Positions 9,383 to 50,915 of a stretch of 64,000 nt of DNA are shown here, in pieces. How positions within the stretch are numbered: the first letter of the stretch is position 1; the number at the start of each line of letters is the position of its first letter. The stretch covers positions 33,756 to 97,755 of the forward strand of contig JAUIIO010000007.1 of assembly GCA_030431715.1 (NCBI GenBank). Direction: 5' to 3'. The stretch comes from a bacterium (GTDB lineage: Bacteria > Bdellovibrionota_C > UBA2361 > RFPC01). Position numbers and translations under genes: made by a program. The notes under the pieces were generated by a model that saw nothing but the letters and a program-made list of their open reading frames with translations, was not told where the DNA came from and did not search any database.

Positions 9383-9694
9383 GTGAAGAAGAGACAAAAA
9401 TACTTACTTATGTTTTGCATTGCTATGGCTGGTGGTTGGCTTCTGACAGAGCTGGTCTCTATCTATAAGAGCCCTGATAGTGGACTTTTTAGAGAACGAA
9501 ACTGCAGTAACTTTGTGCTTCATGTCGCGGCTATCATGAAGAAATACGATAGTCCGCACCCTATTAACCGTACTGGCAGTTTAGAGGAGCTCCGTAGACT
9601 CTGCTCTTCCCCTCCACTTACGAAAGAGCAAATTGATTGCAGTATGAAATCAGACGATCTTGATGAGATTCAGCATTGTATACGTAGGCGGTGA
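9383..9694 (+). CDS. small Cys-containing protein with N-terminal signal/anchor (103 aa)
   Basis: N-terminal hydrophobic segment LLMFCIAMAGGWLLTELVSI. Confidence 0.35.
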   Translation: MKKRQKYLLMFCIAMAGGWLLTELVSIYKSPDSGLFRERNCSNFVLHVAAIMKKYDSPHPINRTGSLEELRRLCSSPPLTKEQIDCSMKSDDLDEIQHCIRRR

Positions 9695-9699
9695 TGAGA

Positions 9700-11265
9700 T
9701 TACTTTGAATCTCTGGAAGAGAATTCTTGGATAAATGAAGTAACTGCTTTTGAGAACTCTTTATCGGTATAGTTTCGCTTTTTTTGTTCTCGTCGATGGT
9801 GCGATACCACGCTTTCTTTACGGAGTGAATGAATCATTCCGAGATTTGAAAGACATGCTCCAATAATTGAAAATCTTTCGTTTGGAGAGATGCGTTTATC
9901 GATCTCTTCGAGATTCTTGTATAAGAGTGCCTTATTATCAACATGAATAATATCACCGTTGTCATCGAGTGCATTTTTTAGCGTATATTTATGTTTCTCG
10001 GGAGATGGGCAGGCAAGATCGGCATAGAGGAGACCTGATTCCAGATCGCACTGTCCAAGATCGAGAACAAGAGAACCATCGGCTTCAAGATCGTATCGTA
10101 GAGTGAAAGTTTCTTGCTGATTGTCATATGGCGACACTATAAAAGAGATACGTGCCTGTTTGTTTGTCCCCCCTGTATCACGCGCGAATACGCTCACGCG
10201 AGGTGTTAGCTTACGTCGTTCACCATCCCAGTTTTCAGGAGCGGATCCTTCACATATGGCTTTTGCCATTTCTTTATGAATGTCTGTCATGGTGGATAGA
10301 AATGTGAAGATTTCAATTGCATGCAGATAAGTCGGGACCATCAGTGATGAAGCTTTCAGGTTCTCTCCTTTAAGCTCTGGCAAGAATTCATCCATGATAG
10401 GAAACGTATTTTTCTCTATGACACTTACTATTCTTTCTCTGGAGACTCTTCTATTTGGATATTCTGGCCAGTAGTAAAGACCGGGAATGGTATTTGGATA
10501 ACGACTGTAACAGCCTACCAGTGCGCTCATATATGCAGAAGCCTCAGTTACGAGGCGATCGCTCTCGTCGACAAATGACATGAGAAGCGTTCTTGCTGGT
10601 ACTCTACGCTTTTTAAAATGTGCGTTAAGCGCTGTTTTAAATTCTGTAATAGCATCAAATGCCTGACCAGCATGAAGCCTAAAAGACGCGTAGAGTCCTT
10701 GTAAGTTTACTCCTTGCTCTCTGTGTCCGGTAACGAGTTCACTCTCCGGGTCAGTGATGTTATACGCAGTATGTAAAACATTGTACGCGACAATAGGATC
10801 CGTTCGGACAAGATTTACGAGCAATCGTTCTTCCTCAGAGTCACGCATTTGGACCTGTTCCTTAAAGACTTCGTCCAGAGTCTTATCGCCCGTAGCAAGT
10901 GAGGTAATGAGGGTAAGCTTTACGTAATCAAATGCAAAATCTACTGCCTGCTCACACCAATAGTGATGTTGCTCAGGGGTGATGCCTGCTTCCTCAGCAT
11001 TGGTAAGATTCTTGTCGTAAAGTTCAGCTGAAAGCTCGCGGCGCTCCTGTCTTGTCAGCCCAAATTCATGATTACCATTAAACTCTGAAGTATAGGGTTT
11101 TCGAGTTTCTCCGATCTCAACAACACGCTCATGTAAAGCGAGGCTAAGCGATTTTAAGTACTCTTTTGCCAGTACAATCTTTTCTATATTACGTAAGGTT
11201 CTTTTATCTGTGGGATCCTCATTCTCATGAGAGGAGGTATGTTTGTTAGATAGATTTTGATGCAT
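9700..11265 (-). CDS. hypothetical protein (521 aa)
   Basis: Long intact ORF. Translationally coupled to the downstream 278-aa ORF, with a stop-to-start gap of 2 nt. Confidence 0.45.
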   Translation of the reverse strand: MHQNLSNKHTSSHENEDPTDKRTLRNIEKIVLAKEYLKSLSLALHERVVEIGETRKPYTSEFNGNHEFGLTRQERRELSAELYDKNLTNAEEAGITPEQHHYWCEQAVDFAFDYVKLTLITSLATGDKTLDEVFKEQVQMRDSEEERLLVNLVRTDPIVAYNVLHTAYNITDPESELVTGHREQGVNLQGLYASFRLHAGQAFDAITEFKTALNAHFKKRRVPARTLLMSFVDESDRLVTEASAYMSALVGCYSRYPNTIPGLYYWPEYPNRRVSRERIVSVIEKNTFPIMDEFLPELKGENLKASSLMVPTYLHAIEIFTFLSTMTDIHKEMAKAICEGSAPENWDGERRKLTPRVSVFARDTGGTNKQARISFIVSPYDNQQETFTLRYDLEADGSLVLDLGQCDLESGLLYADLACPSPEKHKYTLKNALDDNGDIIHVDNKALLYKNLEEIDKRISPNERFSIIGACLSNLGMIHSLRKESVVSHHRREQKKRNYTDKEFSKAVTSFIQEFSSRDSK

Positions 11266-23660: not shown

Positions 23661-25522
23661 GTGGCAGTAACAGTAGGATCGAACATAGCCTCTCTTCGGG
23701 CACAGAGACAGCTCAATCGCAGCTCGAACTCTCTTTCAAGTGTGTTTGAACGCCTTTCTTCCGGACAACGAATTAACAGAGCATCTGATGACGCGGCAGG
23801 TCTTGCCATCTCTGAATCACTTAACGTGGATCGAAAAGTTTATACGCAGGGAATGCGCAATCTCAATGATGGGATATCTCTGCTAAACATCGCTGATTCA
23901 GCAATTGCGGAACTTTCGAGTATCGTCATACGAATACAAGAGCTAGCAGAGCAGGCGGCCAATGGCTCACTTTCTCACACCCAACGAGACTCTCTTGATA
24001 GTGAAGCGCAGCAATTAAAAGATGAGTACTTCCGTATCTCACGTTCTACTGATTTTAATAATTTAAATCTCTTTGACGGATCAATTGAACAAGGTGTTCG
24101 GATTCAAGGAGGATATGGCATAGATGGCTCAATCTCCTCTTCGCTTGGTGGAGCGATGGGGGATGGAACGCTACAGGCCACTAATACACTTTCCCGTGGT
24201 AATGGTGGAGGAGAATCAGAGCTAAGAGACATTGATGGTGATGGGGTGCTTGATCTCATCGCTACGGGCTACGCTTATAGCACAGGTACAAATGGAACCA
24301 TCACCGTTTCACTGGGTAATGGTGATGGGACGTTTGGTGCAATGGAACGTTTGGCTCGAATGTTCCCACTGGCGCAAGTGCGTCTCTTTCCATCGCTGAC
24401 CTTAACAACGACGGAAAGCTCGATGTTGCTACAAGCTACTTCGGTGATGTCTCAATCTTACTTGGAAATGGAGACGGAACCTTCGGAGCAGAGCTAACGA
24501 TAAGCACTCCAGCAACTCAAGATCTGTCACTCGCAGATCTTAATAGTGATGGTTTTGTAGATCTAACGGTAGCAGAACGAACAACAGGCAATGTGATTAC
24601 ATTTCTTGGTAATGGAGATGGCACATTTCAAAGTGGCCAAACATTCTCAGCTACCGGAGGCTCCTCTGGCCTTGCCCTTGATGACATAGATGGTGACGGT
24701 GTCATAGATATTGTAGCTGTTAGTAACGAAGTAACTACGCTTCTCGGGAATGGTGATGGCACATTTCAAAGTGCGATTACGTATGCTACTGGTACAGGAT
24801 CTCAAGAGGTAACCATCGGTGATTTGAACAATGATGGTATACTGGATATAGCCACTGCCAACTTTTCAAGTGATGATGTTAGCGTACTTCTTGGTAACGG
24901 TGACGGATCGTTTCAAAGTGCCGTGACTTACGCTGCCGGCAACGGTGCATACGACATTCTGTTTGAAGATATGAATAGTGATGGAACTCTAGATATCCTT
25001 ACCAAGAATTCACTGGATAATTCTATTACGATATTACTTGGAGGTGGTGATGGAACATTCGAAAGTGCCGTATCATATGCGGCGCCCGGTGTGCATGGCT
25101 ACTCAGTTACAAGTGGGGATGTAAATAACGATGGCGTCATTGATATTGTCGCTGGGACTGCTTACAATCATAATGTATTGCTGGGAAATACTCGTGTAGG
25201 TATTGCACCCATTTTAGATTTTTCCCTTTCTACACAGGCTGACGCCCTTCAGGCCCTTGCTCCGTTAAGCCGCAAACTTGACTCGCTTTCTGCCCAGAGA
25301 GGTGTCATTGGAGCGTTTGAGTCACGACTTGCCTCTGCATTGAACACATTGCAGGCTACTAGTGAAAATTACGCTCTGGCTGAATCTAGGATTCGAGATG
25401 CTGATATCGCATTTGAATCCTCTCAGCTCACACGACTAAATATCTTGCAACAGGCCGGAGCGGCAGTGCTCGGGCAGGCAAATCAGCAGCCTGATATTGC
25501 CCTTCAACTACTGACATCATAG
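23661..25522 (+). pseudogene. fliC: flagellin with FG-GAP/VCBS beta-propeller-like central domain, interrupted by a +2 frameshift near 24335-24355 (or sequencing error)
   Basis: GTG start. N-terminal flagellin D0/D1 region (IASLRAQRQLNRSSNSLSSVFERLSSGQRINRASDDAAGLAISE...LNIADSAIAELSSIVIRIQELAEQAANGS) in ORF 23661..24497. C-terminal flagellin domain (SRLASALNTLQATSENYALAESRIRDADIAFESSQLTRLNILQQAGAAVLGQANQQPDIALQLL) in ORF 24593..25522. About eight D(L/I)NNDGxxDI...LLGNGDGTF repeats continue across the break in the +2 frame. Confidence 0.8.
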
Positions 25523-32465: not shown

Positions 32466-34667
32466 GTGGATCCCACGAAGTTAGTTGTTCGTTCGCTTGT
32501 CGATCTTGGCGAGCTTGAGAATATGCCGTCTGATGAGGCAATTTACTCTCAGTCATGTGGTGCTGTTCGCACCTTAGCAGATCTTGGACTTATTGATGAA
32601 CAGAAAGCGCTTAAGGCGCTTAGTGCAAAGCTCTACGTTGACTACGTTGATCTAGACAGACTTCCAGAGGGAAAAAGGTTAGAGCCGCAGCACTTTGAAG
32701 AACTAAATCGGGAAGTTCTCGCGCGTTATAAGCTTTTTCCACTTTGGAAAGAGAAAGAGAGCTATGTTGTAGCTACTGCCAATCCGTTTGATATGGAAGG
32801 TATTAACCTTCTTGAATTTGCCTTGGGGAAAAGGGTTCAGATCGTTTTGGCAGAGGAATCAAAGATTCAAAGTAGCCTTACAGAGTATTTTCCAGATGAT
32901 ATTTCACAATTTGATATCCTTAGCGATCTTGAGAGCGAAGACTACGTTGAAATTCTGGGAAAAAATAGCGCAACAGAGTCAGATGATATTAATGCCAGTG
33001 AAATTGATGCGCCACCGATTGTAAGGCTCGCGAATAAGATTATCGCTGATGCCTATGACAAGCGAGCAAGTGATATACATATTGAGCCTGGCCAAGATAA
33101 GATTGAGATTCGCTTCCGCATCGATGGGGTAATGCATAATTTCCTCGAAATACCGAAACGACTTCAGCCATATCTCCTTTCTCGTATTAAGCTTATTGCT
33201 GGCATGGATATCGCCGAAAAGCGAAAACCTCAAGATGGCCGGCTAAGAGTGCGGGTAAATCAAGTCCCGATCGATATGCGAGCCTCAAGTGTGCCAACAG
33301 CATTTGGAGAAAAGATGGTGCTGCGGATACTTCGATCAGACGCAGCGAAGGTCACTTTTAGTGAACTCGGGGTTTCTCCTCCAATAGAGAAAAAGCTTAA
33401 TAGTGCTTTAGACAAAAGAGGAAAACTTTTTCTCGTTACTGGTCCAACCGGTTCTGGTAAGACCACGATGCTCTATACGTTCTTAAACTATCTTCGAGAT
33501 GGAAAAACAAATATCCAGACGGTAGAAGATCCAATTGAATATCGCGTGCCCGGAATTAGCCAGATTCAGGTTAATAATGCCACGGGAGTTACATTTGCCA
33601 GCGCCCTGCGTTCTGTACTGCGTCAGGATCCAGATATTATTCTAATTGGTGAAATACGGGATGAAGAGACGGCATGTATCGCTTTACAAGCTGCTCAGAC
33701 CGGACATCTAGTCATATCGACTCTCCATACAAACGACGCGCCAAGTGCTGTGACGCGGCTTATGAACCTTGGTGTGGATCCGTTTCTTCTTGGCTCGAGC
33801 TTGGAAGGGGTTCTCGCACAAAGACTCATTCGCAAAACGTGTGTTGAATGTCAGCGACCTCTGACTGACATGCAGCTTGCTAAATACGGAGCATATATAG
33901 AGCATTATTCAATTGACCCGGCAACTCTCTATGCGGGTACGGGGTGTGAGGAATGTCACTACTCTGGCTACATGGGGCGGACAGGGCTCTATAGTTACCT
34001 GCAGGTTGATGGCAGGATAGAGGAGTGCATATACCGATCTGCTCCGACCTCGGAAATTGTTCATACGGCTTTACAAAGAGATTATACCGATCTTCACTTC
34101 GCAGCAATTGAGGCGGTTAAGAGTGGCATTACCACGTTTGATGAGGTGAAGGCATATCTGGTGCTACCTGAGATTACTGAAGTTGCTCATGTGGCTTCTC
34201 AGCTAAAAGAGGTTCAGGCTGTGGAGGAGGTGCATGAGCAGGAGGAAGAGCAGGTGCAGGAGGAAGAGCAGGAGCCTGCGCGAAATGATGGTATTGAGAA
34301 AACTAAGGTTTTACTTGTTGAGGATGACGAGGATACGCGGAGTGTTCTTTCGCTTCTCTTGCAGCGAGAGATGTACGAGGTTATTGAAGCTGAGAACGGA
34401 GCAGAGGGGCTACAGAAGGTCTATGAGCATAACCCCGGAGTGGTCATCTGTGATATGATGATGCCTGTAATGGATGGTAAAGAGTTTTTAAAGAAGATGC
34501 ATTCTCGCAAAGAAACAAAAAGTATCCCTGTTGTTTTCCTTACAGCAATTGATTCGGAAGAAAATGAGCTCGAACTCCTTGAGCTTGGTGCGCAGGATTT
34601 TGTCAGCAAGACTACCTCATCGAGCATTATGTTGACTCGTATCCGTAATATTTTAGAGCGACAGTAG
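32466..34667 (+). CDS. type II secretion / type IV pilus ATPase (GspE/PilB family) with C-terminal CheY-like receiver domain
   Basis: GTG start after a GGGAGG SD. T2SSE_N-like N-terminal domain. Walker A GPTGSGKTT, Asp box, His box. Tetracysteine CVECQ...CEECHYSG. C-terminal KVLLVEDDEDTRSVLSLLLQ...ICDMMMPVMDG...PVVFLTA receiver domain. Confidence 0.85.
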   Translation: MDPTKLVVRSLVDLGELENMPSDEAIYSQSCGAVRTLADLGLIDEQKALKALSAKLYVDYVDLDRLPEGKRLEPQHFEELNREVLARYKLFPLWKEKESYVVATANPFDMEGINLLEFALGKRVQIVLAEESKIQSSLTEYFPDDISQFDILSDLESEDYVEILGKNSATESDDINASEIDAPPIVRLANKIIADAYDKRASDIHIEPGQDKIEIRFRIDGVMHNFLEIPKRLQPYLLSRIKLIAGMDIAEKRKPQDGRLRVRVNQVPIDMRASSVPTAFGEKMVLRILRSDAAKVTFSELGVSPPIEKKLNSALDKRGKLFLVTGPTGSGKTTMLYTFLNYLRDGKTNIQTVEDPIEYRVPGISQIQVNNATGVTFASALRSVLRQDPDIILIGEIRDEETACIALQAAQTGHLVISTLHTNDAPSAVTRLMNLGVDPFLLGSSLEGVLAQRLIRKTCVECQRPLTDMQLAKYGAYIEHYSIDPATLYAGTGCEECHYSGYMGRTGLYSYLQVDGRIEECIYRSAPTSEIVHTALQRDYTDLHFAAIEAVKSGITTFDEVKAYLVLPEITEVAHVASQLKEVQAVEEVHEQEEEQVQEEEQEPARNDGIEKTKVLLVEDDEDTRSVLSLLLQREMYEVIEAENGAEGLQKVYEHNPGVVICDMMMPVMDGKEFLKKMHSRKETKSIPVVFLTAIDSEENELELLELGAQDFVSKTTSSSIMLTRIRNILERQ

Positions 34668-45548: not shown

Positions 45549-47186
45549 TTACCTCAGGGGGTTATTTGTACGGTGGATGAGTTTTTCTATTCGTTTGAGA
45601 ATAAGCTTTTTCTTTGTGCCTTTTGAGCAGTAGTCATCGGCTCCAGCTGCGAGCAAATTGTACTCAGTATCTTCATCGTTAATGGCTGTGAGCATGAGTA
45701 CGGGAAGGTGAGTTCCTTTCGGTGAATTTCGTAGCTCTTTTACGAAATCTTCACCGTTCATGACGGGCATCATGAGATCACATACTATGAGATTTGTAGA
45801 GTCGTTCTTTAGCGCATGTAGAGCCTCTTTTCCATTTGTCGCAGTTTGAATTTCATATCCTTCCTTCTCAAGGACCATGGTAAGAATATCGAGCTGATCC
45901 TGATTGTCTTCAACTAAAAGAATTTTTGGTTTTACTGCCTTCGCTTTTGTTTCCTTAAAGAAGTACTCGTTGTCCAAGTTTTCAAGTTGTTCGCGTAGTT
46001 CAGCTTCAATAGGATTTTCTATATCTTGTCTTCCGGATCGATGAATAGCGGCGGCAAGAAATCCACTGCTAATACGTTTTACGGCCCCTAGAACCTCCTC
46101 GAAAGTTGTTACCTTTTGTTCAACCTTGGTGAGGCCATCTTCTAGCAGACTGCGTGCACCAGAGCGTGATGCAAGTTCAGATATCTGCGCAGCACTAGCA
46201 CCGTGCTCAAGGAGTTTATGAAGTTCAGGATTTATCTCAAGAGCACTTTGGAGATCTATCCAGCCCTGATACGCGCTGTGCTCACACACCTCACAACCTC
46301 TTCCAACCATATATTCGAAGTCTGAATCTGGTTGTAGTATTGGTGGTAGCGTTGTAATGAACTCACTTGAGATAGGTGTTCTTTTGGAGCATTTCTTACA
46401 AGATTGCCTTACAGAGCGACTCATAAATGAGGCAACAAGTAAGTTATAGAATCTCTTAATCGCTTCTTTCTCGTCTCGAAAGAGATTCCCCGTTTGCAAT
46501 ATAGCCTCAACAGAATCATCGCTATCGACGCCGAGAAGTATCAGGGATTCTTCTGCAAGTTCAAGTACTCGGGTGAGGTCTTGTGCTGTGCGAGCTTTAT
46601 AGCAGATTCGAGCATCGGGCCGGAGTGAATAGCACGTACGCAAAGCATCTTTTCCTGGCGTTCGTTCTCTATCAAAGTTACAGAGCACGATACCTTTTGG
46701 AGCAGCAATGATCTGTCCCAGTACGTTTGTATTATACTCAGCCTGTTGTTTTTGGAGGGTTTGAAGATCCGATTTTTCAGTTCTGATATCTTTAAAGAGG
46801 AGAACAGCCTCTTTGGTGTTCATCCGCTTCTGTCTCTCAACGGTGCAGCAAGCATAGGTATTAGCTTTGAGTTTCATGCGCAGCGTTTTGGGAAGAGAAG
46901 CGCTGGTCGCTCTGGTGTTGAGAGTTGTAGGTTCCGCAATTGTCTTTAGCTCAACGGAAGTTAGAATACTCTTCCAAAATGCCTGTGAGCAGGCGAACTC
47001 GCGTGAACTTAACTTCTCTCCTTTAAAGAATGTGAGGTGAAGAGCCTTTTCTTCCTTAAGGCTTAACTCTAATTTTGTTGCTTCTCCGCGGGTGGCCTCT
47101 TCTATGATGCGTGGGAGAAATTGCGAGATAGCGGTGCTCTCGATAGTGAGACTGCCTGAGCTCTGATTGTTTGTATTCGTATCCAT
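45549..47186 (-). CDS. degenerate GspE/PilB-like domain (Walker A lost) fused to C-terminal receiver domain; paralogue of 32466..34667
   Basis: The C-terminal tetracysteine region CKKCSKR...CEVCEHSAYQGW and helices TTFEEVL are retained. The Walker A position reads NFDRERTPGKDALRT. The C-terminal receiver ILLVEDNQDQLDILTMVL...VCDLMMPVMNGEDF...PVLMLTA is highly similar to the receiver of the 733-aa ATPase. Confidence 0.7.
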   Translation of the reverse strand: MDTNTNNQSSGSLTIESTAISQFLPRIIEEATRGEATKLELSLKEEKALHLTFFKGEKLSSREFACSQAFWKSILTSVELKTIAEPTTLNTRATSASLPKTLRMKLKANTYACCTVERQKRMNTKEAVLLFKDIRTEKSDLQTLQKQQAEYNTNVLGQIIAAPKGIVLCNFDRERTPGKDALRTCYSLRPDARICYKARTAQDLTRVLELAEESLILLGVDSDDSVEAILQTGNLFRDEKEAIKRFYNLLVASFMSRSVRQSCKKCSKRTPISSEFITTLPPILQPDSDFEYMVGRGCEVCEHSAYQGWIDLQSALEINPELHKLLEHGASAAQISELASRSGARSLLEDGLTKVEQKVTTFEEVLGAVKRISSGFLAAAIHRSGRQDIENPIEAELREQLENLDNEYFFKETKAKAVKPKILLVEDNQDQLDILTMVLEKEGYEIQTATNGKEALHALKNDSTNLIVCDLMMPVMNGEDFVKELRNSPKGTHLPVLMLTAINDEDTEYNLLAAGADDYCSKGTKKKLILKRIEKLIHRTNNPLR

Positions 47187-47300: not shown

Positions 47301-47972
47301 TTAGGGGGAGAGGCGGGATTTCGTCCAGCTCTCTTTGCTCGTTTTCTTGTACAGGATGCGGTCGTGAAGTCGATTTAAGCGAAGCTGCCAGAACTCTATC
47401 TCAATGGGCTTTATCCTGTAGCCTGTCCAGTAATCAGGCCGGGGTATGGGTTGTTGCGCGAACTTTTCTTCGTACTCAATAACTTTATCTTCAAGCTCTT
47501 TTCTTGAGTGTAGCGTTGTGCTCTGTTCTGAAGCCCATGCTCCAATTTGACTTCGGCGTGGACGAGAGGAGAAGTACTGGTCAGCAGTAGAGTTGTCTAC
47601 GAATTCTACGTCCCCCTTTATCCGTACCTGACGCTGAGAGACGCTCCAATAAAAAGTGATAGAGGCTTTTGGGTGAGCTGAGAGGGCTGCTCCTTTTTGG
47701 GATTGAGTATTGGAGTAGAATACAAAACCTTCCTTGCTCCACTCTTTTAAGAGCACAATGCGTCCCTCCGGGTAATCATCTGTGCCGGTAGTCGAAAGAC
47801 ACATAGCATTAGGAAATTCACCGGAAAGTGATTTCTTCGCTTGGTTATACCACTGCTCAAATACCACAAATGGATCGGCATGAAGCGATTTTTGAGATAA
47901 TGGCTGGCGAAACCAGAGCGTTGGATGGGTGAGGAAAAAAAGAAGTTCGCGTGAAGTTGAAAAACGAGCCAT
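47301..47972 (-). CDS. pdxH: pyridoxamine 5'-phosphate oxidase
   Basis: FVFYSNTQSQKGAALSAHPKASITFYW...RPDYWTGYRIKPIEIEFWQ. Confidence 0.9.
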   Translation of the reverse strand: MARFSTSRELLFFLTHPTLWFRQPLSQKSLHADPFVVFEQWYNQAKKSLSGEFPNAMCLSTTGTDDYPEGRIVLLKEWSKEGFVFYSNTQSQKGAALSAHPKASITFYWSVSQRQVRIKGDVEFVDNSTADQYFSSRPRRSQIGAWASEQSTTLHSRKELEDKVIEYEEKFAQQPIPRPDYWTGYRIKPIEIEFWQLRLNRLHDRILYKKTSKESWTKSRLSP

Positions 47973-48879: not shown

Positions 48880-49815
48880 ATGGCAGAGAATGTTCAGGAG
48901 ATTAAAGATCGCGCGATGACGCTTTCCTTGCTAGTCGCAATCTTTATGATTGTGGGGAAGTTTCTAGCATACTGGCTCTCTGGGAGTACCGCAGTTCTCT
49001 CAGATGCTCTTGAATCATTGGTGCATATCGTGGCTACTGGCTTTAGTGCTTATTGCGTTCGTTTTGCCTCTCGTCCTCCAGATGAGTCACATCTTTTTGG
49101 CCACGGTAAAATTGTGACCTTATCTATTGGCATAGAGGGTGGATTAATTTTTGTTACAGCATTATACATTGCAGTCAAAGCTTTGATGGCGATGTATTTC
49201 GGACCTGATTTACATGAATTAGGAATTGCTCTCTTTCTGACCGGTGCTTTTGGGGTGATTAACTTATTCCTCGGTACCTACCTTGTGAAGACCGGAAGAC
49301 GACTCAACGCACCAGCTATTATTGCTAATGGGAAACATGTTCTTACAGATATGTGGACAAGTGTTGTAGTTGTGGGAGGTCTTTTCCTTGTTTGGGTTTC
49401 GGGCGTTAGTCTTCTAGATCCCATTGCAGCTCTCCTTGCTGCAGCATGGATCTTGTACTCAGCTATGAAGATTTTAAAAGATGCAATTCAGGAGATGATG
49501 GATGAAGCGCAACCTGAAGATACAGAACGCTTAGTTACCCTCCTCGATTCTCTTGTAAGTAAAGGTGAGATCCATGAATACCACCAGCTAAGGCACCGAA
49601 GGATAAATGGGGAGCTTTCCATAGAGATTCATCTGCTTTTCCCAGATAATGACTCTGTTTTTGATGCGCACCATGAGGCGACCCATGTTGAACAGGTGCT
49701 CAAAGAGAGCTTTGGTCAGAATACACGAATCTTAACACATATAGAGCCACTTACGCACAGTGAAGCTCACCCTGAGGAATTTGAAGAGGGGATCGATCCG
49801 CTCTCTCAGCTTTGA
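48880..49815 (+). CDS. cation diffusion facilitator (CDF) family metal efflux transporter
   Basis: Six transmembrane helices. ALESLVHIVATG...HLFGHGKI signature. C-terminal cytoplasmic domain. Confidence 0.85.
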   Translation: MAENVQEIKDRAMTLSLLVAIFMIVGKFLAYWLSGSTAVLSDALESLVHIVATGFSAYCVRFASRPPDESHLFGHGKIVTLSIGIEGGLIFVTALYIAVKALMAMYFGPDLHELGIALFLTGAFGVINLFLGTYLVKTGRRLNAPAIIANGKHVLTDMWTSVVVVGGLFLVWVSGVSLLDPIAALLAAAWILYSAMKILKDAIQEMMDEAQPEDTERLVTLLDSLVSKGEIHEYHQLRHRRINGELSIEIHLLFPDNDSVFDAHHEATHVEQVLKESFGQNTRILTHIEPLTHSEAHPEEFEEGIDPLSQL

Positions 49816-50915
49816 GGATGTTGTTCGGATCCAAGAATATCAGTGATCATTTTCGTGGTCTCAGGAAAGTTCAGTGGCCATGAAAAACAGTGAAGCCCCT
49901 TCTGGCCTGTAGCGCTCGTTAGAGTCTTGTTGCAGTGTGGCGATGAGATGATAACTGGCGAAGTGGGATCTATGCTTTGAAACTTTGGGAACCACTCTAG
50001 AATATTTTCACAGTCACTTTTTCCGTACAGAAAAATCAGTGCGATCTTATCAGATTGCTGAGCGTACCAGTCGTATGCAAGCTCAAAACTTGCAAATGAA
50101 GTTATATTGATCTCCGCTTGCTGTAAGAAAGGACTGAGAGAGGAGTGAAGGCTTTCATCTGGATCAACAAGAAGTATATTCGCGTTTTCACTGATAATAG
50201 TGGTCTCTGGCTTTCTTGTAAGGAGTGAGACAAGAGGAAAGTCTAGGGAGAAAGAGCTTCCGATTCCTTCCTTAGAAGTAATGTGAAGAGTGGCATCGTG
50301 ACTCTCGAGTATTTTGCGAACATTTGTGAGTCCTTGGCCTCTTATGAGCCCGGTGCCTTTGGTTGAGTAAGCGCCTTTGTCGATTTTAAATAGGGTCTCC
50401 TCGCTCATGCCACAGCCTGTATCTGTAATCACGAGCTCCGCTCGGTTTTCTTCCTCGTGACTTGAGAGTTCTAGCGTTATCTTGCCAGATTCAGATATTG
50501 CTTGCTCAGCATTTACAAGAAGATTTAAAATTACACGTTTAAGCTGCACGCTATTTGCGTTGACACATATGCCAGCCTCTAGCTTAAAGTGAAGCGATAC
50601 CTCTTTTCTTAGACTTTCCTTAAAGAACTGACAGGCTTCTTCAGTTATTGCGCTGAGGTTTACAAGCTTCTGATTTAGTCCACGAGTAGTATCATAGAGC
50701 TGTTTTACGAGTTCACTTGCATCACTTATGCCACTCAGTAGGAGCTTGAGTCTCTTGTAATTACTTGAGCTCTTCTCAGTGTTGCGCAGGAGTGATTGAA
50801 GCGCACCGGTACAGCTCATAAGAGAATTGTTAATGTCGTGAGCGAGTGAGCGTATGCGGGAAGATTCCTCCCTATCGCACTCATTGGTGCTCCCCTGCGG
50901 GTCTGCTTTTTTCAT
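49806..50915 (-). CDS. cytoplasmic hybrid histidine kinase (HisKA + HATPase_c + degenerate C-terminal receiver-like domain)
   Basis: H-box SLAHDINNSLMS. N box and G boxes (VITDTGCGMSEE, GTGLIRGQGL). No transmembrane or sensor domain. C-terminal ILLVDPDESL... receiver-like region. Confidence 0.7.
   Translation of the reverse strand: MKKADPQGSTNECDREESSRIRSLAHDINNSLMSCTGALQSLLRNTEKSSSNYKRLKLLLSGISDASELVKQLYDTTRGLNQKLVNLSAITEEACQFFKESLRKEVSLHFKLEAGICVNANSVQLKRVILNLLVNAEQAISESGKITLELSSHEEENRAELVITDTGCGMSEETLFKIDKGAYSTKGTGLIRGQGLTNVRKILESHDATLHITSKEGIGSSFSLDFPLVSLLTRKPETTIISENANILLVDPDESLHSSLSPFLQQAEINITSFASFELAYDWYAQQSDKIALIFLYGKSDCENILEWFPKFQSIDPTSPVIISSPHCNKTLTSATGQKGLHCFSWPLNFPETTKMITDILGSEQHPQS

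Follow-up and report, generated by a model that had tools for sequence, protein, structure and literature searches.

A response regulator with a catalytically dead PilB/GspE-like output domain in a Bdellovibrionota genome

The 64,000-nucleotide stretch of bacterial DNA analysed here, called the window throughout (contig JAUIIO010000007.1 of assembly GCA_030431715.1, positions 33,756 to 97,755), carries on its minus strand, at 45549..47186, a gene that the open reading frame list, Pfam and an AlphaFold2 model together identify as a response regulator with a dead PilB/GspE-like output domain. The gene, whose coordinates include the stop codon, starts with ATG and encodes 545 residues, and the list holds no competing open reading frame of at least 80 residues overlapping it. 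Two Pfam domains are recognized in the protein. A Response_reg domain covers residues 422-533 (92.3 bits, E 2.8e-26, cut-off 30.2), and a match to T2SSE (PF00437) spans residues 256-366 (36.8 bits, E 2.3e-9, cut-off 24.9) but corresponds to profile positions 275-369/370, that is, only to the last quarter of the profile. There is no Pfam match to the MshEN domain, and the protein begins at the N2 domain. The NCBIfam models for PilB and GspE (TIGR02538 and TIGR02533) are not among the 25 matches listed for it, and its relatives score 57-61 bits against cut-offs of 630-850. The AlphaFold2 model, built from 85 family sequences, has a mean predicted local distance difference test (pLDDT) score of 90.5 and a predicted template modelling score of 0.78.

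The same window encodes, on the plus strand at 32466..34667, an active paralogue of 733 residues, a PilB-type ATPase in which Pfam recognizes MshEN, a full T2SSE domain (423 bits) and a C-terminal receiver (REC). Its P-loop, GPTGSGKT, is intact, and it scores 536 bits against TIGR02538, under the equivalog cut-off. A preliminary description of this locus had read the 545-residue protein as a GspE-like paralogue of this ATPase, and the comparison of the two bears this out for the N-terminal region. Profile-profile alignment with hhalign of 24 family members without their receivers against 17 ATPases gives a probability of 99.9% and an E-value of 3.8e-33 over 345 columns, and maps residues 16-376 of the dead protein onto residues 181-572 of the paralogue, which comprise the whole of N2 and the C-terminal domain (CTD). 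A direct BLASTP comparison yields 28% identity over 355 columns (E 4e-32). With the AlphaFold2 model as query, Foldseek retrieves PilB (5zfr and 5tsh), PilF (5oiu) and GspE (4pht and 1p9r) with E-values of 1e-17 to 7e-20 and aligns the first ~400 residues at about 17% identity. A chance resemblance of the N-terminal region is excluded by these values, and the output domain descends from a PilB/GspE-type assembly ATPase. Residues 16-140 (46767..47141, minus strand) form an N2-like domain whose fold is kept and whose sequence is very divergent, as seen by hhalign and Foldseek. Residues 141-262 (46401..46766, minus) are a remnant of the RecA-like ATPase core, delimited by hhalign, by the order of secondary-structure elements in the model and by HMMER searches against the PDB. 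Both the N2 fold and the RecA-like CTD fold are kept, although the core has lost a helix and a strand.

The former Walker A position lies at residues 165-181 (46644..46694, minus), where the translation reads GIVLCNFDRERTPGKDA and not GxxxxGK[ST]; in the hhalign column mapping, GIVLCNFDRERTPGK of the dead protein stands opposite KLFLVTGPTGSGK of the active paralogue, and the residues aligned with the motif itself are NFDRERTPGKD. Only a "GK" is left of the motif, the first glycine and the serine or threonine being gone. This dipeptide is not conserved, and the closest homologues carry unrelated residues at that position. The preliminary description had placed the lost Walker A motif correctly, and an intact P-loop does not exist anywhere in the protein. 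The loss extends much further than that description, which named only Walker A. A deletion of 45 columns in the hhalign alignment removes the helix following the P-loop together with the strand that bears the Asp box (EDPIEY); in agreement with this, the AlphaFold2 model follows the PilB CTD in the order of its secondary-structure elements but lacks a helix and a strand. The Walker B strand reads LRPDARICYKART as opposed to LRQDPDIILIGEIRD in the paralogue, with the catalytic glutamate lost (GEIRD replaced by YKART), and the His-box strand reads ESLILLGVDSDDS as opposed to GHLVISTLHTNDA, both histidines being replaced. HMMER against the PDB places the segment LILLGVDSDD on the His-box strand of PilF. 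An assignment of this segment to Walker B, which BLASTP suggested, was rejected because HMMER, hhalign and the secondary-structure order of the model all give the His box. In N2, the columns that are invariant in an alignment of real ATPases, S202, D203, H205, P208, R216, R218 and G221 of the paralogue, are occupied by T, K, E, L, T, F and E, respectively. The residues lost here are reported to be completely or highly conserved across PilT-like ATPases (PMC5424180). Every catalytic element, namely Walker A, the Asp box, the Walker B glutamate, the His box and the N2 arginines, is lost, as is the N1/MshEN region. Of the earlier interpretation this much stands: the protein is a paralogue of a receiver-fused GspE/PilB-type ATPase and is degenerate, but its zinc module and receiver are kept. 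Such a protein would be unable to bind or hydrolyse ATP and would act purely through protein-protein contacts.

Several parts are retained. The zinc-binding CM subdomain, delimited by translation and family conservation, occupies residues 263-317 (46236..46400, minus) and contains all four cysteines of the GspE tetracysteine module, as previously noted, in the arrangement C263-x2-C266-x31-C298-x2-C301; the paralogue has C459, C462, C494 and C497 with the same x31 spacing. These four cysteines are invariant in 85 family members and are predicted to bind zinc. The subdomain further carries the family-specific elements LP (P281), Y292 and GRGC. It is followed by the C-terminal helices of the CTD (residues 318-370; 46077..46235, minus), defined by family conservation and by alignment to real ATPases, with a near-invariant G-x-RSLLEDG-x-x-K opposite the GMRxLxxDGxxK of these enzymes. 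A poorly conserved linker (residues 371-420; 45927..46076, minus) is predicted by AlphaFold2 as two helices and then a stretch of low pLDDT. The receiver itself occupies residues 421-540 (45567..45926, minus) and matches known receiver structures in Foldseek with template modelling scores of at least 0.9. Its phosphorylation pocket is complete: the acidic residues E426 and D427, the acceptor D470, T500 and K522 are invariant or nearly so in the family. The codon of the predicted phospho-acceptor, Asp470, within the motif VCDLMMP, is at 45777..45779 (minus, from the translation), and this residue is conserved in at least 90% of the 85 members. The canonical Lys-Pro after beta-5 is replaced by Lys-Gly. 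The receivers of the dead protein and of the paralogue are 40% identical (67% positives) in a gapless alignment over 121 residues, so that they are clearly related, but "highly similar", as they had been called, overstates it. Their alpha-1 helices differ (DQLDILTMVLEKE vs DTRSVLSLLLQRE).

Taken together, the 545-residue protein is an orphan two-component response regulator with an intact receiver and Asp470 as predicted acceptor. By fold and descent it is related to PilB/GspE, but it fails the defining catalytic features of that family and should not be classed among its ATPases. Because MshEN is absent and the core is dead, we regard it as representing a derived sister family of the receiver-fused PilB ATPases and not as a member of that clade.

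The protein is not an isolated case. A word-index search with the whole protein found just three homologues, 35-42% identical, and the family looked tiny until an exhaustive profile search was made. This search, in which a hidden Markov model (HMM) of the receiver-less part was run against 1.84 billion cluster representatives, gave 53 matches at E<=1e-30 and some 100 clusters (50% identity) of proteins of 500-580 residues that match end to end. The canonical P-loop GPTGSGK[ST] occurs in none of the family-sized matches; the loose pattern [GA]xxxxGK[ST] gives three chance matches, all of them off the P-loop position. All family-sized matches carry two CxxC motifs about 35 residues apart. When 85 aligned members are submitted to Pfam, a receiver is found in 85/85 and the C-terminal part only of T2SSE in 78/85, and the motifs LP, GRGC, RSLLEDG and DDYC are specific to the family and absent from real ATPases. 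Some members have also dispensed with N2, namely P0154 (390 residues) and the gene at 9644..10813 of locus L005 (389 residues); the latter is complete, with just 115 bp to its upstream TamB-like neighbour on a contig of 112 kb. Other searches were less productive. The word-index search with a 24-sequence N-terminal profile gave little besides real ATPases and no informative names, and a first scan of a genome collection found no members; a second one and a metagenome scan, both dominated by generic receivers, returned two full members plus one truncated member and one partial member, respectively. The names given to members by their sources are "response regulator [Bdellovibrionales bacterium]", "response regulator [Deltaproteobacteria bacterium]", "hypothetical protein [bacterium J17]" and "CheY-like chemotaxis protein", and the two GTDB species representatives that have the gene are labelled as Bdellovibrionales and Proteobacteria metagenome-assembled genomes (MAGs). 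No specific model for the dead family was found in NCBIfam, nor a curated family for the architecture in NCBIfam or Pfam, and literature searches did not find the combination of a dead ATPase and a receiver described. The dead proteins form a conserved, unnamed family of about 100 clusters, whose available names place its members in Bdellovibrionota-like bacteria.

The origin of this family is best approached through its receiver. The architecture of the active paralogue (MshEN, T2SSE and REC, ~720 residues), here called PilB-REC, characterizes a large clade in MAGs of Bdellovibrionales, Oligoflexia and Deltaproteobacteria. An HMM of the dead-family receivers scores PilB-REC receivers with a median of 125 bits and a maximum of 144, as opposed to a median of 79 and a maximum of 111 for generic receivers, which had been harvested from 5.8 billion proteins by similarity to the 545-residue protein itself; 85 of the 112 PilB-REC receivers outscore the best generic one. 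The nearest neighbour outside the family is a PilB-REC receiver for all 35 family receivers sampled, and the reverse holds in 29/35. The proline of Lys-Pro is present in 0/79 family and 0/103 PilB-REC receivers vs 63/76 generic ones, Lys-Thr being the commonest replacement. The dead proteins also share with the PilB-REC clade the order CTD-linker-REC, the x31 cysteine spacing and the phylum. Unlike them, the clade keeps MshEN and the catalytic motifs, and the core, fast-evolving in the dead family, is its most conserved part. A metagenomic protein of 740 residues, P0226, combines MshEN with a dead core (GVYLVASTSEHARS at the P-loop position) and a receiver with GADDFCAK; it is plausibly an intermediate between active PilB-REC enzymes and the dead family, which lacks N1. 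That the family arose by duplication of a PilB-REC ATPase is well supported by these comparisons but not proven. On a separate point, the loss of Lys-Pro in both the PilB-REC clade (P0300-P0419) and the dead family may alter the beta5-alpha5 switch for output control.

The distribution of sequence constraint along the protein was assessed by mean pairwise identity in 85 family members and in 85 PilB-REC proteins of similar receiver divergence. In the dead family the identity falls to 16% in N2, 19% in the core and 22% in the His-box region, vs 53%, 66% and 64%, respectively, in the active clade. The zinc module (37% vs 36%), the C-terminal helices (31% vs 34%) and the receiver (50% vs 47%) are equally conserved in both, and the linker is equally variable (15% vs 13%). 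The dead family has lost the constraint tied to catalysis and ring mechanics, N2 and core being relaxed, and its zinc module, C-terminal helices and receiver are constrained as much as those of the active enzymes.

Based on the above data, we propose that the protein is a response regulator whose dead, PilB-derived output works as a phospho-switched decoy or adaptor. As an explanation of the whole, we give this proposal a probability of roughly one half; the decoy or adaptor mechanism taken by itself is favoured tentatively, at slightly less than even odds. It is favoured because only the zinc module, C-terminal helices and receiver are constrained as strongly as in the active enzymes, and because some members lack N2. 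In this mechanism, the phosphorylation state of Asp470 would decide whether the zinc/C-terminal module occupies a partner or releases it. The partner would be the one to which the same surface of the active PilB-REC motor docks, candidates being a shared regulator and the components of type IV pilus, Tad or T2SS-like machines. The dead protein would then tune the motor as a competitive decoy or adaptor, without being part of its ring. That a defective paralogue can in principle interfere is shown by defective EpsE variants, which have a dominant-negative effect on the wild type (PMC5061722).

Several observations weigh against this proposal. The binding partner is putative. In a neighbour-joining tree of receivers (123-column alignment) each group forms a clade, but a joint clade of the family and PilB-REC is recovered in only 17/200 bootstraps, which is weak, and an HMM restricted to the CTD does not place the family closer to PilB-REC than to other PilB/GspE proteins, the sets compared having been gathered with bias. 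The constraint on the zinc/C-terminal module could reflect folding stability instead of a partner surface. The gene neighbourhoods point the same way: a tblastn search of 168 loci found an active PilB-like gene near the family gene in 0/10 loci from other sources, within 8-10 kb or the whole contig if shorter (3 of the 10 contigs are <6 kb), and the neighbours called in the longer loci, L002, L165-L168 and the partly annotated L005 and L006, are housekeeping genes, with no pilus or secretion genes among them. A family member and a PilB-REC gene in the same genome are seen only in this window.

Four other explanations were considered. The preliminary description had suggested a phosphorylation-dependent regulator or decoy of the active ATPase and had proposed modelling a mixed hexamer; in that version the dead protein would be incorporated as a poison protomer into mixed hexamers with PilB-REC, throttling the motor according to the phosphorylation of its receiver. 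The long forms, including the 545-residue protein, do keep the N2 and CTD folds, an active paralogue is encoded in the same window, inactive EpsE variants are dominant-negative (PMC5061722), and the packing of N2 against the neighbouring CTD is the main contact in PilB hexamers (PMC5424180). It is this very packing, however, that is released from selection in the dead family, N2 and core being its least constrained parts and as variable as the linker, and the mixed hexamer is disfavoured for that reason. In addition, complete genes without N2 exist (P0154 and that of L005), and the nucleotide-dependent closure that drives ring assembly and conformation could not occur in a dead core. We consider such a poison subunit quite unlikely. 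It is a little less unlikely, but still improbable, that the dead scaffold, and especially its zinc/C-terminal subdomain, has been repurposed to bind a target unrelated to pili or secretion. The housekeeping neighbours and the lack of nearby pilus genes in the loci examined elsewhere would fit this idea, as would the recurrence of TamA/TamB-like, TatA and LipA/E2 genes, and of pdxH with tlyA (window and L002), beside the family gene, and the motifs that real ATPases lack. Yet these neighbours vary between loci in a manner that resembles eroding synteny more than an operon, and a zinc/C-terminal constraint equal to that of active ATPases is what would be expected if ancestral contacts had been kept.

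The receiver might alternatively be a phosphate sink that competes with the PilB-REC receiver for one histidine kinase, the dead domain serving as ballast or for localization. The receiver is indeed the most conserved part of the family and the closest relative of PilB-REC receivers. Partner specificity in response regulators is set largely by the alpha-1 helix, and this helix differs between the two proteins of the window; moreover, four invariant cysteines and RSLLEDG, maintained across about 100 clusters, would be needless for a pure sink. This explanation appears very unlikely. Lastly, we reject, as having a negligible chance of being correct, both a decaying pseudogene and a still-active ATPase with an unusual P-loop. 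The "GK" dipeptide at the Walker A position, which could hint at a cryptic enzyme, is a feature of this one protein and is not shared by its closest homologues, all catalytic motifs are absent and 45 core residues are deleted; decay of the gene is contradicted by an intact reading frame, a confident model and about 100 diverged clusters with the same architecture.

Several known systems resemble the dead protein. Paralogues that have become pseudoenzymes are well known, and so are response regulators whose enzymatic output is degenerate. The latter include proteins with degenerate GGDEF/EAL domains such as FimX, and TadZ/CpaE consists of a pseudo-receiver joined to a ParA-like ATPase. FimX and TadZ/CpaE follow a common logic with the dead protein: a signalling domain is linked to one that derives from an enzyme and acts through binding instead of catalysis, and some of these systems control pilus machines. 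They differ from the dead protein in fold and descent, and TadZ shows the reverse situation, having a degenerate receiver and an ATPase that is kept. FlaH/ArlH is an ATP-binding, RecA/KaiC-like partner of FlaI/ArlI. It offers, by analogy only, another case of a non-motor RecA-family protein beside a hexameric motor of the PilT/GspE superfamily, FlaH being the partner of the FlaI motor ATPase of the archaellum (PMC6011876). FlaH nevertheless belongs to another RecA lineage, is not a paralogue of its motor, binds ATP, and is neither equipped with a zinc module nor a response regulator. The dominant-negative EpsE mutants (PMC5061722) likewise represent a defective GspE-type protein that blocks the machine beside the wild type, but they are laboratory mutants of the zinc module in a complete ATPase, whereas the dead protein keeps the zinc module and loses the core. 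With PilB, GspE (EpsE) and PilF themselves (5tsh, 5zfr, 5oiu, 4pht; PF00437), the dead protein shares the N2 and CTD folds, the C-terminal helices and the tetracysteine CM, a zinc subdomain typical of assembly and not of retraction ATPases (PMC5061722). It differs from them in lacking Walker A, the Asp box, the Walker B glutamate, the His box, the N2 arginines and N1/MshEN, in the deletion of one core helix and one strand, and in the receiver added at its C-terminus.

Motors of the PilB/GspE type drive type IV and Tad pili as well as type II secretion, and their on/off switching is only partly understood. A family that keeps no more of such a motor than its zinc module, C-terminal helices and receiver suggests that these parts form a surface for regulation or docking. 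What the zinc module does in the active enzymes is still unclear (PMC5061722), and the family provides a natural separation-of-function variant with which to probe it in pilus and secretion motors. For Bdellovibrio-like bacteria, its main value would be to give natural access to what the zinc and C-terminal module does in regulation or docking. It also adds an unrecognized type of output domain to the response-regulator repertoire, behind public names that are just "response regulator", "CheY-like" or "hypothetical". A bolder possibility, which we regard as somewhat unlikely, is that the protein is the first natural pseudo-ATPase regulator in the PilT/GspE motor superfamily, a phospho-switched decoy whose zinc/C-terminal module competes with PilB-REC for docking to a type IV pilus or Tad-like machine. 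If so, pilus extension in Bdellovibrio-like bacteria, which are often predators, would be under a two-component switch.

In the window the gene is flanked by others on the minus strand: pdxH upstream (47301..47972), as had been stated before, and a TlyA/FtsJ-type methyltransferase gene downstream (44639..45367). Beyond them is an ABC-F gene. The order pdxH, family gene, tlyA and ABC-F is kept in L002 around a 35%-identical homologue. A scan for promoters and terminators gave nothing exceeding the shuffled background, and an Rfam scan of the window gave zero matches. Elsewhere the recurrent neighbours are TamA/TamB-like (L005, L006 and L167), TatA (L165 and L168) and LipA/E2 (L166 and L167) genes. 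The TamA (Omp85/POTRA)/TamB-like gene or genes of L005 (3773..9528), L006 (2750..9128) and L167 (376..6177) lie within about 2 kb of the family gene, although these three loci are unrelated, and in L005 and L006 the TamA/TamB pair has a divergent orientation and adjoins the family gene directly. This proximity may be a remnant of synteny, or it may hint at a connection with outer-membrane biogenesis.

A weak candidate for the cognate kinase is encoded at 49806..50915 (minus), a soluble protein with a weak HisKA and a HATPase_c domain in Pfam. It is orthologous to a hybrid kinase of L002 (17072..18673; 26% identity, E 4e-37), and the synteny of a CDF transporter, kinase and YceG near the family gene is found in the window and in L002. 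No kinase adjoins the family gene in the other 8 loci. The C-terminal 140 residues of the window kinase align to the receiver of its L002 orthologue and no longer score as a receiver.

The PilB-REC gene of the window is 12.5 kb from the dead-ATPase gene and downstream of TadE/TadG-like genes; together these genes lie 11-19 kb from it. On the plus strand, the segment 27780..40039 encodes TadE, a TadE-like protein of 600 residues and a TadG-like protein of 733 residues, then PilB-REC, and after it a protein of 627 residues without a Pfam match and an M12 (reprolysin-like) metalloprotease of 1037 residues. A PilB-type ATPase beside Tad-type minor pilins is an unusual mix.

Between the stop codon of the dead-ATPase gene and the tlyA-like gene, at 45409..45546, the palindromic repeat of the preliminary description is present but turns out to be two inverted copies of a GC-rich repeat (45409-45433 and 45522-45546), 88 nt apart, whose 25-nt arms are 88% complementary. 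This intergenic repeat of 19-25 nt, with a consensus of about CCTCTCCGCGAACTCCGCG in a genome of 44-46% GC, occurs in four copies in the window (also at 44618-44636 and 60314-60332) vs 0.01 expected. It is a REP-like element and provides genomic context only for the dead-ATPase gene. Further away on the plus strand, an open reading frame with Flagellin_N and an FG-GAP repeat (23661..24497) is followed by one with four FG-GAP_3 repeats and Flagellin_C (24593..25522); the segment 23661..25522 may hold one "giant" flagellin gene, frameshifted and carrying a beta-propeller insert, or the two frames may be genes in their own right.

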